64,000 bases of DNA from an uncultured Bacteroidales bacterium (GCA_963741935.1 CAVUJY010000017.1:14264-78263), one strand, 5' to 3'; shown: positions 689-10,344, counted from the stretch's first letter. The notes: a model not told the origin generated them from the sequence alone. Translations and numbers: made by a program.

Positions 689-796
689 GATTGCATTTTT
701 TTATAAGTCGATTCAGGAATTTAAAATTATAATTAATAAAGATAAATTAAAATGCAGACATATAATGAAATGTGATGCATGATTGTAAATAGCTGA

Positions 797-2299
<1,503 letters not shown>

Positions 2300-2376
2300 T
2301 TACTTTTAATGAAATAGATTGCGTAAAAATAAATAAAAAGTTCAGTTATTATTCAAAAAAGAAAGAGAGGTTCATC

Positions 2377-3477
2377 ATGAAAGCAAAATACTTACATCGG
2401 AATCCTGTCCCTGATAATGCTTTCCGCTTCATCTGCAAAGGCTCAGGCAGGGATGGAATGATTACCGGAATGATGATGCCAGGGTAGTCGTAAATAATTA
2501 TTATGATGATTATGACTATCTACTACTCTTCACGTATTAACAGGTTTCACCGGTCATATGCAGCTTTTGACTATTATGCACCGGTCTTTACTGATACATA
2601 CTGGTATAATTACCAGCCTTATTCCTGGGGGATAAGTATATATGGTGGTGGTGGTTTCGGATTCAATTATGGATATAGTTATCCGGTCTTTAATTACGGT
2701 TATTCATATTACAATGGTTATGATCCATATTACGGAAGTACCTATTATTGGGGCTATGATCCATTCTATTACAGCGGATGGTATTCTCCTGTAATCATCA
2801 ACCTGAATTTTCGCAACCGATGGTATAATAGAAATTACTACAGCTGGGGTGGTCATTATAACCATGGCTATAATAACTACTATAATCATAATACATACAA
2901 TAATAACTATTATTCCTCTAACAGGTATTCATCGTCTTCAAGCCCTTCAAGGAGAAGTACCGGTAATGTCTCTGAATCACCACGAAACAGTTCAAGGCGG
3001 GATGTTTCAAGTGTAAATCCGTCGCGTAACACTTCAGGTTCAGGCAGATCAGTAACCGTTCCGGCAGGTGAAACAAGAAGGAGTAATCCGGCTGTTACTA
3101 CAGGTACCACTGTTCGAAGAGCTTCGAATAACCAGGCCTCTGCAGGCAGAAGTATTCAAAGGTCTTCTTCAGCAAGAAGTACATCAGTTTCAGCCGCACG
3201 CGGAACCAGTACTTCAAGAGCTGCTAATACAAGAGGGAGTTCACCAGCTTCCAGATCTGTTTCTTCTGCACCACAGCGAAGAAGTTCATCTGCAGCATCA
3301 GCCCCACGATCAGGTTCGTCAAGATCTTCGTCTGTTTCAAGAAGTACCTCTTCATCAAGGTCATCAGCTTCCAGAGGTGGAAACAGTTCTGCCAGAAGCC
3401 AGTCATCATCTTCAAAATCTTCATCTTCCGGTCAGGATCAGGGAGAAGGAGATAATTCTGAATACTCGCAATTTTAA
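2377..3477 (+). pseudogene. Secreted low-complexity protein with a Tyr/Gly/Asn-rich N-terminal half and a Ser/Arg-rich C-terminal half. The N-terminal ~130 nt need frame corrections.
   Basis: ATG at 2377 gives MKAKYL. The adjacent frame reads a textbook signal peptide, IGILSLIMLSASSAKAQA. The main ORF 2503..3477 follows: YYSSRINRFH..GGGGFGFNYGYSYPVFNYGYSYYNGYDPYYGSTYYWGYDPFYY.., then ..SSSSSPSRRSTGNVSESPRNSSRRD..SRSSSVSRSTSSSRSSASRGG.. A purine-rich GAGAGG lies 8 nt upstream of the ATG. Confidence 0.6.
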
Positions 3478-3603
3478 TACTGATTCTAATAGAAAATAAG
3501 TGTCAGAGCTCAAAATTTATATAATAATCGAAAGTTGTTTCAGAAAATTGTTTCTTTGGTATAATATTTGTTTGATAATTAGAAATCAAAAGGAGGAAAT
3601 AAA

Positions 3604-5075
3604 ATGAAAGCATTATCTTACATATCAGTCATTGTACTCTTGTTAATGGGATCCTGTTCATCCCGGCTTTACACAGGAGCAGAGTACGATGATTTGTACT
3701 ATACTCCATCGGATAACCCAGTTGTATCCGCTGCAACTGCTGATAATGAACGGTATTGCCGATAGTCCTGCAGGAAGGGAAGACTATTATGATAATGTAT
3801 ATGCTTCGGATACACTTGTAGCCGATGATTATGCTGATGCCGTTGATTTAAACAGTTCTATTGTAGATAACAATTATGACAACGGAGGATATGACTATTA
3901 TGATAATTTCTCCTATACAGGCAGACTGAATAGTTTTTATGGTAACTCTTTTTATCCTTACTGGAGAGATCCTTACTATTTTGGAGGTGGTTACTCATCA
4001 TTCGGATATGGATTTGGATTATGGCGGTTTCCCATATTCATATGGTTTTTATAATCCCTATACCTGGAACAATTATTATGCTTATAACGGATTTGGTGGT
4101 TATTACGGCGATTATTACGGCGGGTTCTATCCCGGTTATTATGGGGCTATGGAGGTTATTATGGTGGATATTATGGTGGTTTCGGCTCTTACTATTCTCC
4201 GTATGATTACAACGCATGGGGCGGTTATTCTCATAGCGGTATAAGAGATTATTCTGTTCCTTATGGAAGACGGGATCGACCAAGCACTCTTTCATCGAGC
4301 TGGAACAGGAGTACAACTCCTATGGGTTCTGCAAGGAGAGATTCATATAGCACTTCAGGAGGCACCAGTACCTCAAACAGACGGGTGGCTTCAGGCAGTA
4401 CAGAAAATAGGGCAATAGCAACAGATCAGAGAAGAACTAATACTTCTCCTGTAAACTCAAGACAGGCCGTTTCTTCATCCAGAACCTACGGACAAACGTC
4501 TTCATCGAGAAATGCAACGGTAAATTCATGCTTCAAATCAAAGAGAAGCAGTAAATACGCGTCCGGCATATAACAGTGCAAACAGAAGCTATACTCCAAG
4601 TTATAGTAACCCCAGGATGAGTACACGTCCTTCTTACAATAACAGCAGAGCCACTGAAGGTGTGAGCACAAACCGAAATAATGGTTCTGTCACAAACAGC
4701 AGGTCATTTTCAAATCCTGGTGCAAGAACTCCCGCTACCCCGAGGACATACCAGAATTCCAACTCAAGAAGTAATGCCGGCAGTAATACAGGAACAGGAC
4801 GAAGATTTGAACCTTCATCATCAAGATATTCTCCTCCGGCAAGTTCGAACAGGTCCTATACACCACGAAGTACACAAAGTTACTCAGCACCTTCCAGAAG
4901 CAGCTTCAGTAACAGCAGATCTTCATCATCGTCAGGTGCATTTTCCGGATCACGATCATCATCTTTTGGTGGAGGAGCTTCTTCTTCAGGAAGATCAATA
5001 TCCACTGGTTCTTCATCATCAGGTAGTTCTTCTTCAGGTGGCAGATCTTCTTCAGGAGGCGGTACCAGAAGATAA
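3604..5075 (+). pseudogene. Lipoprotein paralog of the preceding gene with the same Tyr/Gly-rich then Ser/Arg/Thr/Asn-rich layout. Four frame breaks as assembled.
   Basis: ATG 3604 gives MKALSYISVIVLLLMGSCSS, a signal peptide with a lipobox Cys. Fragments 3689..4054, 3939..4244, 4322..4573 and 4617..5075 continue it. It shares the motif Y(S/T)xR(I/L)NxF with gene A (FSYTGRLNSFYG versus YYSSRINRFH), GYYGG repeats, and an SR-rich tail ending ..SSSGGRSSSGGGTRR*. AAGGAGG at 3590..3596 lies 7 nt upstream of the ATG. Confidence 0.6.
4089..4198 (+). repeat. Imperfect in-frame coding micro-repeat encoding G-Y-Y-G-G units.
   Basis: ggttattacggcgattattacggcgggttctatcccggttattatgggg..ggttattatggtggatattatggtggtttcggc translates, after one frame correction in the G-run near 4145, to GFGGYYGDYYGGFYPGYYGGYGGYYGGYYGGFGSYY. 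Confidence 0.5.
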
Positions 5076-5162
5076 ACTTAAAGAATACAATATTTGTTTT
5101 GAAATTATAGTTTCATTCTAAAATAAGAGTGCAGGGATAGATTTACCAAATAGAGATATAAT

Positions 5163-6650
5163 ATGAAAAAGCTAGGATTGATATTATTTGTATGTTTTGT
5201 GATGCTTTCAACCCTTAATTCGCAAAACGTCGACGATGCATTAAGGTATTCTCAGATATTTTATGGAGGAACTGCCCGATTTATGTCAATGGGTGGTGCA
5301 TTTACCGCTTTGGGTGGAGATATGTCTTCATTAAGCCAGAACCCGGCTGGAATAGGGGTATTCAGATCGTCAGAGTTGACATTGTCTCCACAGCTATTTA
5401 AAATTAAAACAACTGCAGGTTTTAATGGTAATACTTCCGATTTCCTGTATAATTTTAATCTTAGCCAGGCAGGTATTGTGAGTAACCTTATCTCGAACAA
5501 TAGAGAATCAGGATTAATCAGCCTTAATATGGGGTACTCTTTTAATAAGACTAATAATCTGAATCAGAGTATGCGGATACAGGGTATAAGTAATTCAAGC
5601 TCAATGGCAGATTATTGGGCCGGTGCTAGTGATGGTACATACTATAGTGATCTTCAGGGTGCTCCCGGAATCGCGTATGATGCCTGGGTAATGGATACAA
5701 TTACTGGTTCAGGGGGAATACGTTATGGAACTGCATTCTCAAATTATGGCGACAACCCACCATCAGTTTATGGTCAGACAATCAGACGTCTGGTATCTTA
5801 CGAAGGTTATACAGGTGAACATGCAATTTCAATAGGTGGTAATTATTCAAATAAGATATACTTCGGTGCAACACTGGGCATAAGCAAACTAAAATATACA
5901 AGCCACTACGAACACCTTGAATCAACTGATATTTCAATGCCTTCAAATTTTCAGAATTTCACATATACCGATCATTATGAGAATAACGGAACAGGATATT
6001 CACTTAAGCTGGGTGCAATAATCAAACCAATAGAAGCTCTTCGCATAGGTCTTGCTTTCCACACTCCAACCATATACCACATAAATGAATATTTCTATGA
6101 GGATATAACATCAAATTTTACCGATGGAGGTCATTATGATATCTCTGATACTCCAATGAGGTACTCATATGCATTGACAACACCGTTCAGGGCCCTGGCA
6201 GGGGTTGCTGTTCAGATCAGAAAGATAGCTCTTCTGAGTGCTGATTATGAATATGTTGATTATAGTTCTGCCAAGTTCTCTGAAACCGGTGATGGTTATG
6301 ATTACAGTGAAAAGAACATGGATATTAAGAACACTCTCCAGTCAACAGGTAATCTTCGCCTGGGTGGCGAACTAAGATTAAACAGACTGTACCTTAGAAC
6401 AGGATATGGTTATTATGGAAAGGCATTCAAACCAGGTGAGGATAATCAGAACCTTGATTACAATACTTTATCATTTGGAGCTGGATTCAGAGAACAGAAT
6501 GTCTCTATCGACTTCGCATATACCAATTATATGTATAAAGAGAAATATATACTGTATCCTCTCGACAACAATTTTGATCCCGCTATAGCCAGTCTTACTA
6601 CAAATAAAAACATGTTTACTGTTTCTCTTGCTTATAAGTTTGGTTATTAA
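5163..6650 (+). CDS. Outer-membrane beta-barrel protein, FadL/PorV-like. This is a family-level guess.
   Basis: Intact 495-aa ORF. Signal peptide MKKLGLILFVCFVMLSTLNSQ. Conserved N-terminal plug-like motif DALRYSQ..GGTARFMSMGGAFTALGGDMSSLSQNPAGIG. Alternating beta-strand pattern and aromatic C-terminus ..FTVSLAYKFGY. Confidence 0.6.
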   Translation: MKKLGLILFVCFVMLSTLNSQNVDDALRYSQIFYGGTARFMSMGGAFTALGGDMSSLSQNPAGIGVFRSSELTLSPQLFKIKTTAGFNGNTSDFLYNFNLSQAGIVSNLISNNRESGLISLNMGYSFNKTNNLNQSMRIQGISNSSSMADYWAGASDGTYYSDLQGAPGIAYDAWVMDTITGSGGIRYGTAFSNYGDNPPSVYGQTIRRLVSYEGYTGEHAISIGGNYSNKIYFGATLGISKLKYTSHYEHLESTDISMPSNFQNFTYTDHYENNGTGYSLKLGAIIKPIEALRIGLAFHTPTIYHINEYFYEDITSNFTDGGHYDISDTPMRYSYALTTPFRALAGVAVQIRKIALLSADYEYVDYSSAKFSETGDGYDYSEKNMDIKNTLQSTGNLRLGGELRLNRLYLRTGYGYYGKAFKPGEDNQNLDYNTLSFGAGFREQNVSIDFAYTNYMYKEKYILYPLDNNFDPAIASLTTNKNMFTVSLAYKFGY

Positions 6651-6673
6651 TACTTTGTTAACTTGTTTGACAT

Positions 6674-6705
6674 AAGGCTGACCCGGTAAGGTCAGCCTTT
6701 TTTTA
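6674..6705 (+). terminator. Rho-independent terminator after the barrel gene.
   Basis: aaggctgac-ccggtaag-gtcagcctt hairpin followed by a T-run (tttttt), 24 nt after the stop codon. Confidence 0.6.
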
Positions 6706-6722
6706 ACTGTCTTATATTCCAA

Positions 6723-7332
6723 TTAATCAAGGTAGTGTGCAGCTTCAGGACCCATATTAAAAAGAAGATCGAGAATGCTCATGCGCGGAACGAAGACTCC
6801 GGGCCGGGTAAAAACCTGTGTATATTCTTTTGACATCAAAAGATGACTTTGATTTCGGTGAGATGGAATATCTGTAGTCGTCTTCCCCATTTAATACAGG
6901 CTCAAAATAAGTCGTGTAAGATATTTTTTTCTTATACTGAAGGATACTTAAAACGGATACCATTAGATCTATATTAAGGTCAAGGAGATATGGATAACAT
7001 TTTGATATAATCTTCTCAAATGACTCAAAATAAAATTCAAAAAATGGTGAAGAGTTATATGCAGCTATTAATGCCCTGAGGTGAACTTGTATCCAGCGTT
7101 TGGAATAGTCAATTTTTATGTCCTTTACCGGAGTTTTATGAATACTTCCGAGTAAAACCGGTACAGAAAGTATCTGAGGTCCGTGAGCTGTCAGAATATA
7201 GCATCTGTTACGATATGTTTGTTTAAGATAATTCTCCTCTCTTTCAATGAATACTTCGTCTGCATTTGCGATCAGACTAAAGTATTCAACAGGAGCCAGG
7301 TAAGCAGTTGAAACGAGTATCTTCCCTGCCAT
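6723..7332 (-). pseudogene. WbqC-family protein (function unknown), with one frame break near the C-terminus.
   Basis: MAGKILVSTAYLAPVEYFSLI..EREENYLKQTYRNRCYILTAHGPQILSVPV..DYSKRWIQVHLRALIAAYNSSPFFEFY. The family-typical C-terminus ..YTQVFTRPGVFVPRMSILDLLFNMGPEAAHYLD* is recovered in another frame, with its stop at 6723..6725. The start lies 11 nt after the larB stop. Confidence 0.7.
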
Positions 7333-7343
7333 TTCTCAGTATT

Positions 7344-8093
7344 TCAGGCAAGTTTGTTAATCATACTTGCAGAGAAACCTGCCCCAAAACCGTTGTCAAT
7401 ATTAACAACAGTAACACCTGTTGAGCAACTGGTCAGCATAGCAAGTAAGGCTGATATTCCTCCAAAACTTGCTCCATATCCCACACTGGTGGGAACAGCA
7501 ATTACCGGTTTGTCAACAAGGCCGCCTACAACACTTGCAAGTGCTCCTTCCATTCCGGCAATGACAATTATTACCCTGCATTTTCTTATTTCCGGCAACT
7601 TATCCACAAGTCTGTGAATACCGGCAACACCGGCATCATAAATTCTTAAAACATTATTGCCGAGTAATTCAGCAGTAATAGCCGCTTCCTCGGCTACCGG
7701 TACATCTGATGTCCCTGCTGTTATAACTGCGATCATACTTTCAGGAGGGACTGTTTTTTTCTTTTGCATTGATATGATTCTGGCCTCCTTAAAGTAAACT
7801 GCGTCAGGTAAAACCTCTTTTACGGCATCAAACATTTCCTGATTTGCCCGGGTTCCAAAAACATTATTCTCGCTGGTGGCCATGACCCTGAAGATCTCTC
7901 TGACCTGTTCAACCGATTTACCTGCACAGTATATAATTTCGGGATATCCGGTGCGTAATTCCCGGTGGTTATCAATTTTTGCAAACCCAAGATCGGTGTA
8001 TGGGAAATTTTTCAGAATATTCAGGGCTTCATCAATACTTTTATCACCTGTTTTTACATCCTTAAGCAGTTTTTCAACTTCTTTAATATTCAT
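7344..8093 (-). CDS. larB: Nickel-pincer cofactor biosynthesis protein LarB (NaAD carboxylase/hydrolase, PurE-like).
   Basis: Intact 249 aa. ..FAKIDNHRELRTGYPEIIYCAGK.., ..ITAGTSDVPVAEEA.., ..VIAGMEGALASVVGGLVDKPVIAVPTSVGYGASFGG.. Confidence 0.85.
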   Translation of the reverse strand: MNIKEVEKLLKDVKTGDKSIDEALNILKNFPYTDLGFAKIDNHRELRTGYPEIIYCAGKSVEQVREIFRVMATSENNVFGTRANQEMFDAVKEVLPDAVYFKEARIISMQKKKTVPPESMIAVITAGTSDVPVAEEAAITAELLGNNVLRIYDAGVAGIHRLVDKLPEIRKCRVIIVIAGMEGALASVVGGLVDKPVIAVPTSVGYGASFGGISALLAMLTSCSTGVTVVNIDNGFGAGFSASMINKLA

Positions 8094-8197
8094 ATCAGGA
8101 AATTAAGTTGTTCTTTCTGTTCTTTAAATTAACAGGTCAACAATAACGTAATTAGTCCATAATCAGGACATAGGTTATTATGTTTGTTCGTGCCGGC

Positions 8198-9001
8198 TCA
8201 TATACTCCGTATTTCAGGGTTAGAGCTTCCGGTCCTGTAACCTTCAAGGTCCAAAGATACATATCGGAATCCTATTTTTTTCATATTGTATATAATATGT
8301 TCTCTGTCAGGAGTATGAATTATCTTCTCAAGATATCCCGGAAGACATTCAATTCTGGCAACATCTCCATGAATCCTGACTCTTGTTCCTGGATAACCTT
8401 TCTCAAAGAGCATGTTTTCTGCCTGTTCTACCATGGCAATCATTTCTCCTTTTACCTCTGTATCATAAGGTATTCTGGTAAGGAGACATGCCATGGCAGG
8501 TTTATCCCATATATACAACCCTTCTTCTCTTGCCAGAAGTCTGATCTCTTTTTTCGTCAGACCCGATTCGAGCAGAGGACTTCTTATATCCATCTCCTTT
8601 AATGCTCTCATACCTGGTCTGAAATCACCCTGGTCGTCATTATTGGTGCCGTCAATAATATATTTATATTTATTTTCCCTGGCAAAATTCACCAGTTCGC
8701 TAAATAGTGTTTTCTTGCACTGGTAGCATCTGTCGATAGGATTATTTCTGATTATCTCAGGGAAAGGAATGTCCAGAATTTTATGCCTGATACCAAATGA
8801 TTCTGTGAATTCGATGGCGTCCTCTATTTCATGTCCGGGTATATATGGTGTTCTGATAGTAACGGCTATAATACCGCTATTTCGTACAGTAGCCGCCCTG
8901 TGCAGGAGAAAGGCGCTGTCAACTCCTCCCGAGAATGCGACAACAAAGGAGTTCAGCTCCTTTAGTATATTATTTAGTTTAAGTGATTTATTTTCTGTCA
9001 T
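8198..9001 (-). CDS. larE: ATP-dependent sacrificial sulfur transferase LarE (PP-loop ATP pyrophosphatase family).
   Basis: Intact 267 aa. PP-loop VVAFSGGVDSAFLL. Conserved Cys-containing segment DKPAMACLLTRIPY. Sits between larC and larB. Confidence 0.85.
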   Translation of the reverse strand: MTENKSLKLNNILKELNSFVVAFSGGVDSAFLLHRAATVRNSGIIAVTIRTPYIPGHEIEDAIEFTESFGIRHKILDIPFPEIIRNNPIDRCYQCKKTLFSELVNFARENKYKYIIDGTNNDDQGDFRPGMRALKEMDIRSPLLESGLTKKEIRLLAREEGLYIWDKPAMACLLTRIPYDTEVKGEMIAMVEQAENMLFEKGYPGTRVRIHGDVARIECLPGYLEKIIHTPDREHIIYNMKKIGFRYVSLDLEGYRTGSSNPEIRSI

Positions 9002-9165
9002 TTTCTGGTGTTTTAATTATGAATTCAACCTTTGATTATATTCGTCCTCCTTATTTTTCTTTCTGTATATACAATCAATCCCTGCCGGCATTATTCCGGC
9101 AAAATCATTAGATATGTTAATTTATTCACAGTTGATCCGGTACAACTTCTCCGGTTTGGTATGTC

Positions 9166-10344
9166 TTAATTTTTATTTTGAACTAACAGAGACATTACGT
9201 AGTTATAGATCTCTTTTACAGGAATGCTTTTTTCCGAAGCAATCTGCCTGCAATCCTCATATTCAGGTTTGAATGAGACTTCCGTCCCATTATAAAATGA
9301 TCTTTTAACGGTTATATCGCCATATTTAGTCTGAAGTTTCTCAATTTTCCTTACAAGTGTATCCTTCCTGAAAGGCAATGTCCTTATACCCAGTGAAGTT
9401 GATTCAGTAAAAATTATACTCTTTAGTACATCAGCTGATTCATTTTCACATATTACGTTGAGTACGATTCCCGGACGCCCTTTTTTCATAATAATATTTG
9501 AAAAGTAAACATCTGAGGCTCCTGCACTGAAGAGCTTCTCGGAAATGTACTGGAAAAATTCAGGGTTCATATCATCAATATTGCATTCGAGCAGAACCGC
9601 ATCATGTCCACTTACGGTATCAGACAGGGTTTCTCCAAGATATACTCTCAATAAATTAGGTATATCCTGTGGATCTTTTTGTCCGATACCATAGCCTGTT
9701 TTTTCAATTTTCATTGTCAGGTCAGGGGTAAAATCAGTTCCCAAGGCTGCAATTATTGCTGCTCCGGTAGGTGTTGTTGCTTCGAAATCAACTCCCCCTT
9801 TTTTAACCGGTAGTCCTTTAATAATTTCAGCTGTTGCAGGTGCCGGAACAGGAAGTTTTCCGTGATCGCACAGAACAAAACCACTTCCCAGTTCAACCGG
9901 TGAAACATGTACTCCATCAACCTTTAAAAAATTATAGCATATAGCTGCTCCAACTACATCAATAATTGAATCAACAGCACCAACTTCATGAAAATGAACC
10001 TTTTCTATTGATATGCCATGAACCATAGCTTCTGCTTCAGCTATCTTCATGAAAATTCTTGCACTCAGTTTTTTTGTTTTGTCATCCAGCTCTGAGTCAT
10101 TTATTATCTTCTCAATATCAGAAAGATGCCTGTGAGCATGTTCATGCCTTGTTTGTTTAACAGTGACTTTTGTTCCTGTAATACCATGTCTCTGGTCCTC
10201 CTGAACCATAAGTTCCCAGCCAGGGAGCTTCAATTTATTCAATTCATTAATTAAAAATGACTTGTCAACACCCAGGTCCAACATCGCCCCCAGATTCATA
10301 TCTCCGCTGATGCCTGAAAAGCAATCGTAACTTATAATTTTCAT
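9166..10344 (-). CDS. larC: Nickel insertion protein LarC (DUF111 family), a single uninterrupted ORF.
   Basis: Intact 392 aa. N-terminus MKIISYDCFSGISGDMNLGAMLDLGVD. His-rich segment TRHEHAHRHLSDI. Typical length. Confidence 0.85.
   Translation of the reverse strand: MKIISYDCFSGISGDMNLGAMLDLGVDKSFLINELNKLKLPGWELMVQEDQRHGITGTKVTVKQTRHEHAHRHLSDIEKIINDSELDDKTKKLSARIFMKIAEAEAMVHGISIEKVHFHEVGAVDSIIDVVGAAICYNFLKVDGVHVSPVELGSGFVLCDHGKLPVPAPATAEIIKGLPVKKGGVDFEATTPTGAAIIAALGTDFTPDLTMKIEKTGYGIGQKDPQDIPNLLRVYLGETLSDTVSGHDAVLLECNIDDMNPEFFQYISEKLFSAGASDVYFSNIIMKKGRPGIVLNVICENESADVLKSIIFTESTSLGIRTLPFRKDTLVRKIEKLQTKYGDITVKRSFYNGTEVSFKPEYEDCRQIASEKSIPVKEIYNYVMSLLVQNKN

Follow-up and report, generated by a model that had tools for sequence, protein, structure and literature searches.

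The pairing of a lipoprotein with an outer-membrane barrel of the FadL fold is a known theme in Bacteroidota. According to two reports (PMC12578637, PMC12611786), the N-terminal tail of BamH, conserved and lipidated, is held by the FadL homologue BamG in a groove and between strands, where this tail touches the conserved N-terminus of BamG, and the genes of the paralogous pair BamH2-BamG2 (Bt1786-Bt1785) make up a putative operon. Here we consider a locus from an uncultured Bacteroidales bacterium, contained in a stretch of 64,000 nucleotides (GCA_963741935.1 CAVUJY010000017.1:14264-78263) that is referred to as a whole as the window, with positions counted from its first letter. Three genes lie on the plus strand between 2377 and 6650, termed gene A, gene B and the barrel gene, of which B encodes a lipoprotein predicted to be disordered and the last an outer-membrane protein of predicted FadL fold. 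What is conserved as a unit is the pair of B and the barrel, not the set of all three genes. Building on the export signals, the predicted disorder of the exported proteins, their conserved motifs, the predicted FadL fold and the deep co-conservation of B and the barrel, we tentatively read these two genes as encoding a two-component outer-membrane module; we give this reading somewhat less than even credence, the contact between the partners, the topology of B and its ligand being what we infer.

The resemblance to the BamG-BamH pair lies both in the arrangement, a lipoprotein gene paired with that of a barrel of 14-stranded FadL fold (predicted here) in Bacteroidota, and in the fold, as the barrel model obtained here superposes best, by target-normalised template modelling score (TM-score), on BamG (0.64-0.65 for BamG of B. 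thetaiotaomicron, P. gingivalis and F. johnsoniae). The differences are nevertheless important to stress. No sequence homology is detectable between the barrel and BamG or between B and BamH, and the barrel described here is ~90 residues longer (495 amino acids (aa) vs 390-406 aa). BamH is a folded crescent or similar to a carbohydrate-binding module (CBM-like) and carries a surface-export signal, whereas B is predicted to be disordered and lacks this signal. The locus comprises the following features:

2279..2294, plus strand: promoter-like element TTTGGTATGGTATTTG upstream of A, adjoining the start of the divergent gene proS; conserved in 38 A-bearing loci
2377..3455, plus strand: gene A, encoding a secreted, non-lipidated protein, predicted disordered, of ~359 aa after frame correction
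3555..3570, plus strand: promoter-like element TTTGGTATAATATTTG upstream of B, then AAAGGAGG ahead of the ATG; conserved in 71 loci
3604..5075, plus strand: gene B, encoding a three-block lipoprotein, predicted disordered, of ~492 aa after frame correction
5111..5146, plus strand: element GTTCATTCT-N6-AGAGTGCAGGGATAGATTTAC in the spacer between B and the barrel gene; conserved in 66 loci
5163..6650, plus strand: barrel gene, intact, encoding a FadL/TodX-fold outer-membrane barrel of 495 aa (Pfam, AlphaFold2, Foldseek)
6674..6706, plus strand: intrinsic-terminator-like hairpin (hairpin 6674-6699) with a 10 bp stem including 6 G-C pairs, then a T-run, directly after the barrel gene

The association of B with the barrel was followed in a close set made up of the 80 best barrel loci from GTDB genomes, the count for B covering those loci with enough upstream DNA. 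An intact B gene stands directly upstream of the barrel gene in 73/73 close loci, with a median gap of ~80 nucleotides (nt); in the window, as an earlier, preliminary description of the locus had correctly recorded, the barrel gene is intact and begins 87 nt past the stop of B. Taken alone, this adjacency is weak evidence for coupling, because the whole region is syntenic in the close loci (proS upstream in 65/65, WbqC/LarB/LarE downstream in 64/68). It was dropped as proof of coupling once the regional synteny had been found, and distant loci with other flanks were then examined. In 7/7 further places that were looked up, five of them holding distant B relatives, B is directly followed by a barrel of 476-500 aa, and what lies downstream varies from place to place: WbqC-LarBEC; WbqC with S26 peptidases and DapB; a methyltransferase with DUF4954; Zn_ribbon_9 with NIF3 and LpxK; or a gene of 768 aa. 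The six looked-up barrels that are complete genes are full-length orthologues, 33-46% identical to the window barrel and bearing the same N-terminal motif; at the five distant places the downstream genes are wholly different and the barrel is 33-38% identical to that of the window. The B-barrel pair is thus conserved independently of its wider neighbourhood, since the pairing is kept while the downstream genes change. That the barrel might not be co-conserved with its low-complexity neighbours, a doubt raised in the preliminary description, is at odds with these counts as far as B is concerned. One locus with both barrel and B (L017) comes from a metagenome-assembled genome (MAG) labelled Chloroflexota (JBLNAO010000259.1), all others being from Bacteroidales/Bacteroidota; it is probably a binning contaminant.

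When read after frame correction, B is a lipoprotein in which blocks of very different composition follow each other. Its lipobox in the window is LMGSC, with lipidation predicted at Cys18, and a lipobox of the signal peptidase II type (LGSC, LASC or LSSC) is found in 69/73 B orthologues. Just after the lipid anchor comes the motif LYTGAEYDDLYYxPSD, a candidate for docking, and then an acidic block (about residue 30 to 100) with a median length of 83 aa and a net charge of about -12 among 74 close sequences; an invariant D-T-L within this block fits the Bacteroidota O-glycosylation sequon. The next block, rich in Tyr, Gly and Phe and with GYYGG repeats, has a median length of 105 aa in the same sequences and consists to 42% of Tyr/Phe/Trp. 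The remainder is a Ser/Arg tail (median 252 aa, net charge about +24; 32% Ser, 11% Arg and ~1% Lys), which in the window spans 268 aa with 80 Ser and 37 Arg. This tail contains the conserved islands TRPxYNSxNRSYTPSYSNPRMSTRPSYNNSR and SYSAPSRSS and terminates in RR, as do 66/74 of the close sequences. Arg is specifically selected over Lys in the tail, because the other long open reading frames (ORFs) of the window have 7.2% Lys and 4.0% Arg. The sharply divided composition attributed to A and B in the preliminary description is real and is conserved across orthologues, and within the window, read in all six frames over its 64 kb, 60-residue stretches of the Tyr/Gly or Ser/Arg kind are confined to these two genes.

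AlphaFold2, applied to a B orthologue with an alignment of 51 sequences, gave a mean predicted local distance difference test score (pLDDT) of 42.9 and no secondary structure past the signal peptide; by this prediction, B is a fully disordered protein with conserved short linear motifs. Its N-terminal 122 residues match nothing relevant in the PDB, and homology of B to BamH or BamH2 (Bt4306, Bt1786) was not found either. Two types of protein sorting were ruled out. For the C-terminal RR of B, a sortase- or exosortase-type mechanism lacks the hydrophobic helix ahead of RR; and neither A nor B qualifies as cargo of the type IX secretion system (T9SS), as they have no C-terminal sorting domain: with E <= 1 to 5 as the limit, searches of Pfam and NCBIfam yielded no Por_Secre_tail / TIGR04183 match for either protein, and both C-termini are disordered Ser/Gly/Arg tracts ending in RR. 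In composition, the joining of a Tyr/Gly block to an Arg block, with Arg preferred over Lys, recalls the prion-like and RGG/RS domains of the FUS family; this likeness is compositional only, and the proteins considered here differ in that they are bacterial and exported, carry a lipid anchor and possess a further, acidic block. Extracytoplasmic disordered regions of Gram-positive envelope proteins that act on or sense the cell wall, or that are glycosylated, are the subject of reports on B. subtilis RsgI and PBP1 (PMC9732909) and on streptococcal Ser/Thr-rich regions (PMC12041528). With B they share long Ser/Thr-rich disordered stretches outside the cytoplasm; they are, in contrast, appendages of folded membrane proteins, whereas B is predicted to be wholly disordered and has an outer-membrane barrel as partner.

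The B family is large and has so far gone without a name. At least 209 homologues of B (E-values down to 1e-135) and at least 162 of A (down to 1e-87) were found, all of them named 'hypothetical protein', all from Bacteroidales, Bacteroidia or Bacteroidota MAGs and none with a Pfam domain. Neither in their raw nor in their reconstructed form did A and B match anything in Pfam or NCBIfam, in line with the earlier remark that no characterised bacterial envelope system of such a build was known, and literature searches brought up no described Tyr-rich or Arg-rich outer-membrane lipoprotein of relevance. In the libraries and papers searched, a partner disordered from end to end, with the block architecture of B and its C-terminal RR, is undescribed. 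A profile built from 51 B sequences and run against the whole library, in which representatives stand for clusters at 50% identity, retrieved 1,019 representatives at E <= 1e-3, of which 316 reached E <= 1e-10 and 55 reached E <= 1e-30. In distant full-length members the features follow one another in the same sequence as in the close ones: lipobox, short Ser/Thr/Gly linker, Y-D-D-(I/V/L)-Y-(Y/F)-x-P-x-D, acidic stretch, VINNYY, (Y/F)-S-x-R-I-(N/H)-R-F-H-R-P-Y, Trp/Tyr/Gly block, a Ser/Arg/Thr/Asn tail with YTPSYN(K/Q)PR and SYSAPSRSS islands, and a C-terminal GRR. Some of these distant relatives carry recent tandem repeats in the aromatic block or the tail, for instance P0382 (locus L084) with three copies of WYSPGWSMGFYSPWYSS, P0391 with TTTRPAGTTTRPEG repeats and P0396 with SYRSSTPTRSSSSSS repeats, the blocks therefore evolving by repeat expansion with the flanking motifs fixed.

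The barrel protein (100% identical to the public protein P0121) begins with a signal peptide whose probable cleavage site lies ahead of Q21. Hardly any variation is seen in its N-terminal 50 residues or in the N-terminal segment QNVDDALRYSQIFYGGTARFMSMGGAFTALGGD...NPAG, and the N-terminus is the most conserved part of the protein (Q21-N22-x-x-D25-x-x-R28...G36-x-x-R39...M43-G44-x-A46-F47...N60-P61-A62-G63); N60, P61, A62 and G63 are invariant among 50 barrel homologues, and Q21 is likewise invariant. Pfam PF03349 (Toluene_X) matches residues 258-465 with 36.3 bits against a gathering cut-off of 29.7, and the same domain is precomputed on most barrel homologues. The AlphaFold2 model (pLDDT 75.7, predicted TM-score (pTM) 0.73) is uncertain in residues 11-66, the would-be hatch, with pLDDT below 50. 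Foldseek matched the model with probability 1.0 and E = 1e-11 to 1e-14 to TodX (3bs0), P. aeruginosa FadL (3dwo), E. coli FadL and BamG subunits, with TM-scores of 0.51-0.65.

In addition to the fold and the Pfam match, the barrel has in common with FadL, TodX and TbuX a hatch-like segment, G-x-A-R...MGGAF...NPAG, which we take to be comparable to the FadL hatch GLGRAYSGEGA...NPA; the NPA motif is important in FadL (cf. PDB entry 2r4o, 'delta NPA'). It differs from these proteins in being only 10-14% identical to the solved members, in its extra loops and, unlike the characterised transporters, in being invariably coupled to the gene of a disordered lipoprotein. PorV (LptO) and PorQ are also Bacteroidota FadL-like barrels, they bind secreted proteins, and they show weak partial NCBIfam matches to the barrel. 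The scores are, however, far from the cut-offs (NF033709 and NF052325 tested for PorV/PorQ; 28.5 bits vs 90 for PorV_fam and 28.4 vs 325 for PorV2), PorV is absent among the 50 Foldseek matches listed, and A and B have no T9SS C-terminal domain. Thus, of the FadL/PorV-like label given to the barrel in the preliminary description, the FadL half holds by Pfam and Foldseek, and the PorV half has to be given up. An assignment as BamG orthologue is ruled out at the sequence level, since a PDB profile search misses BamG. The barrel is a separate branch of the FadL family, that is, a new subfamily of a known family.

Gene A encodes an exported protein without a lipid anchor. The reconstructed product starts MKAKY(L/Y)IGILSLIMLSASSAKAQA... 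and has a Sec signal, ..ILSLIMLSASSAKAQA, with the signal peptide ending in ..AKAQA; the mature N-terminus is Q23 in at least 90% of the sequences. Bacteroidota substrates of signal peptidase I follow a 'Q-rule', which the mature N-termini of both A (Q23) and the barrel (Q21) fit. A conserved block, DDARVVVNNYYDDYDYYYSSRINRFHRSY..., is present in the protein, and the Tyr/Gly/Asn block (~2503-2925) passes into a Ser/Arg tail (~2926-3452) ending in RRR. The tyrosine richness noted before stands, with a recount of up to 39 Tyr per 137 residues instead of 37, and the tail of 175 aa contains 66 Ser, 29 Arg and no aromatic residue at all. The aromatic residues once reported for the very end of A do not survive: the printed C-terminus ...GQDQGEGDNSEYSQF is a frameshift artefact, because the family consensus and the alternative frame both read ...SGSGRRR*, and the true end is ...RSGSGRRR*, its stop codon occupying 3453-3455.

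The view of A and B as exported paralogues, with a Sec and a lipoprotein signal, respectively, is borne out by the reconstruction and by a comparison of the two families with hhalign (probability 99.5%, E = 2e-22 over 56 columns, a score that compositional bias may inflate). The likeness extends over the surroundings of YSxR(I/L)xRF and into the beginning of the aromatic block, and the motif Y(S/T)xR(I/L)NxF, already noticed in the preliminary description, reads YSSRINRF in A and YTGRLNSF in B. The exact A-type 'RINRFHR' also occurs in distant B relatives, which fits an origin of A as a later duplicate of B that would have lost the lipobox. Gene A is present in 37/69 close loci, a few more having start or frame problems, and is missing from all five more distant loci; in the clade of the window it sits inserted between proS and the B-family gene. 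By its distribution, A is a clade-specific paralogue or addition.

If B and the barrel do form a module, its working could be pictured as follows. B would be lipidated at Cys18 and disordered over its full length, and the peptide behind the anchor, LYTGxEYDDLYYxPSD, would dock onto the FadL-fold barrel, which would then be an anchor or partner for B and not a fatty-acid importer. The remainder of B would form a block-copolymer brush consisting of the acidic block, the Tyr/Trp/Gly 'sticker' block and the Arg/Ser polycationic tail. Such a brush might self-associate through Tyr-Arg and acid-base contacts and might bind anionic glycopolymers, namely peptidoglycan, lipopolysaccharide (LPS), capsule or extracellular DNA (eDNA), and the protein of gene A would probably join the same network. 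A role of A and B as surface matrix, adhesive or polyanion binder, put forward in the preliminary description, is possible on this picture.

Several observations weigh against the two-component module. A profile of 50 barrel homologues found no PDB sequence at E <= 1, with the BamG chains 9hiv_F, 9hjm_F and 9n2d_B in the library, and a PDB sequence search with the barrel N-terminus gave no meaningful match. B shows neither sequence nor fold similarity to BamH, which is folded. Because the barrel profile misses every BamG in the PDB, the analogy with BamG-BamH is architectural only. The FadL-type NPA(G) motif is kept in the barrel, which is compatible with a real transport role. Furthermore, the surface-export signal of lipoproteins has been described as consisting of at least two acidic residues among the six that follow the lipid Cys (PMC12578637), and no acidic residue stands at +1 to +6 in 69/69 B orthologues, nor in 10 distant relatives, the acidic YDD cluster beginning at +8 to +14 after the Cys. 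On that definition the canonical surface-export signal of Bacteroidota is missing from B, which may thus point into the periplasm, whereas BamH is docked outside. Lastly, proS is found divergently adjacent to B, at 65-126 nt, in the four distant places with upstream DNA (L084, L086, L087, L088); proS is thus also deeply syntenic with B, so that some local adjacency can persist without physical interaction.

The likeliest of the rivals holds that the two proteins have independent functions: the barrel would import hydrophobic or aromatic compounds as is ordinary for the FadL/TodX type, B would be a disordered tether in the periplasm, and the genes would be neighbours only through shared constitutive regulation beside proS. 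It agrees with the above-threshold Toluene_X match and the retained NPA(G) hatch motif, with the best Foldseek E-values, which belong to the transporters TodX and FadL, with the missing surface-export signal of B, with the separate conserved upstream element of each gene, and with the proS synteny, which marks the region as generally static. Regional inertia does not, however, go as far as the data do. The adjacency is kept at 33-38% barrel identity while all other downstream neighbours change, and the spacing is tight (~50-100 nt) with no terminator between the genes. We regard independent functions as unlikely, with roughly one chance in its favour for every three against.

Slightly less probable still, and doubtful in our view, is that the barrel serves as a dedicated export pore through which the unfolded A and B would be threaded, or laterally released, to the surface, as CsgA is by CsgG or FapC by FapF, to build a matrix that would be adhesive, amyloid-like or able to bind polyanions. 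The curli (CsgA/CsgG/CsgF) and Fap (FapC/FapF) systems resemble the locus in that an unfolded, Gly/Asn/Tyr-rich protein is exported beside an outer-membrane barrel, and an account of CsgF condensates at the cell surface (PMC10133297) offers a precedent for a phase-separating envelope protein. A and B, predicted to lack any folded domain, would suit a narrow channel without an energy source; A has a Sec signal and no anchor; a substrate gene beside the barrel gene is the usual layout of such systems; a private route would be sensible for B, which lacks the general surface-export signal; and the RR conserved at the C-terminus might serve for targeting. On the other side of the balance, the lumens of FadL-family proteins are plugged by the hatch, and the NPAG hatch segment is precisely the most conserved part of the barrel, which is FadL-type and so of a class other than CsgG or FapF. 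The aromatic blocks have neither amyloid-type imperfect repeats nor predicted beta structure, A and B show no Pfam match to the curlin or Fap families and their repeat units and no homology to these proteins, and their Arg/Ser tail has no counterpart there. A fixed housekeeping locus beside proS would also be unusual for matrix or adhesin genes.

Finally, it is hardly credible that only the barrel is functional and that A and B are no more than decayed pseudogenes or low-complexity DNA that encodes nothing, a reading that draws on the eight frameshifts in these genes and that is effectively refuted for the family, as the adjoining proS is also split into at least four pieces, pointing to assembly indels, and intact orthologues with conserved signal peptides, motifs and C-termini exist at 73/73 loci for B and 37/69 for A. 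The worries of the preliminary description that a corrected sequence might not yield continuous reading frames with signals, or that the genes might be lineage-specific junk, are answered by the same loci: the orthologues have continuous ORFs with signals, and the families are conserved.

The state of the sequence itself deserves mention here. To be continuous, gene A requires +1 frame changes near 2395, 2453, 2520 and 3429, and gene B requires frame changes near 3750, 4016, 4145 and 4530. The divergent proS (747-2275, minus strand) is broken into at least four ORFs (747-1151, 1051-1344, 1301-1957 and 1958-2275). Since this adjoining housekeeping gene is also split, the eight single-base frameshifts in A and B are assembly errors, with no sign of a decay specific to them, and together with the split proS they indicate that indel errors of a single base are frequent hereabouts in the assembly. 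Neither A nor B of this genome is found intact in the protein collection, in keeping with frameshifts that the source assembly already had. Stop-free coverage is uneven along the remainder of the window.

Turning to the elements around the genes, the upstream motifs of A and B are near-identical, TTTGGTAT(G/A)(G/A)TATTTG, i.e. TTTGGTA(T/C)(G/A)(G/A)TATTTG, and both genes have a strong AGGAGG box between this element and the ATG; it is unusual for genes of Bacteroidota to have Shine-Dalgarno-like boxes. In the spacer that separates B from the barrel lies a different element, with the consensus GTTCATTCT-N6-AGAGTGCAGGGATAG(A/T)TTTAC, which combines an imperfect inverted repeat, CATTCT/AGAGTG, with a TAnnTTTA box and occurs a single time in the window. 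When 2200-6900 was scanned with Rfam, nothing but snoRNA-like chance matches below the threshold came up, and the spacer folds with an energy no better than that of shuffled sequences (z = 0.05), which gives no sign of a structured RNA; the element could be an internal promoter, an operator or an RNA processing site. The strong terminator placed by the preliminary description only after the barrel is indeed found there (hairpin 6674-6699), and no comparable site lies in either of the two gaps that separate the three genes. Co-transcription of A, B and the barrel gene is possible, and a single three-gene transcript is not established, because each of the three has its own conserved upstream element. 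The three-gene unit suggested earlier is not supported, A being missing from ~40% of the close loci and from the five distant ones.

Downstream of the terminator, on the minus strand of the window (6757-10344), lies a WbqC-like gene, then genes whose orthologues bear AIRC, NAD_synthase/ATP_bind_3 and Ni_insertion domains; those past the WbqC-like gene are a LarB/LarE/LarC-type set for the synthesis of the nickel-pincer cofactor. The WbqC ORF of the window has 191 aa vs 204-215 aa in its orthologues, and its last residues may be frameshifted.

Barrel-lipoprotein pairs characterise the outer membrane of Bacteroidota, and to our knowledge all characterised partner lipoproteins of such barrels are folded. 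The B family departs from this in offering a partner that is predicted to be disordered from end to end and yet keeps its short motifs, its three-block charge and aromatic architecture and its C-terminal RR across deep divergence, in a family of roughly 1,000 clusters at 50% identity for which no Pfam or NCBIfam model exists. In its boldest form, which we consider improbable though worth stating, the two-component module would make of B (and A, if present) a new kind of envelope organiser: a disordered, lipid-anchored block copolymer using the Tyr-Arg 'sticker' grammar of eukaryotic condensate proteins, which, held at the outer membrane by its dedicated FadL-fold barrel, would give rise to a layer of gel or condensate, either periplasmic or on the surface, and would belong to the envelope's core, with constitutive expression, in a large group of uncultured Bacteroidales. 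Should the barrel indeed dock or export B, the non-transport roles of the FadL fold known from PorV and BamG would extend to a third kind, and a natural system would be at hand for studying disordered, possibly phase-separating proteins in the bacterial envelope, in organisms that are abundant in fens, sediments and anaerobic digesters.

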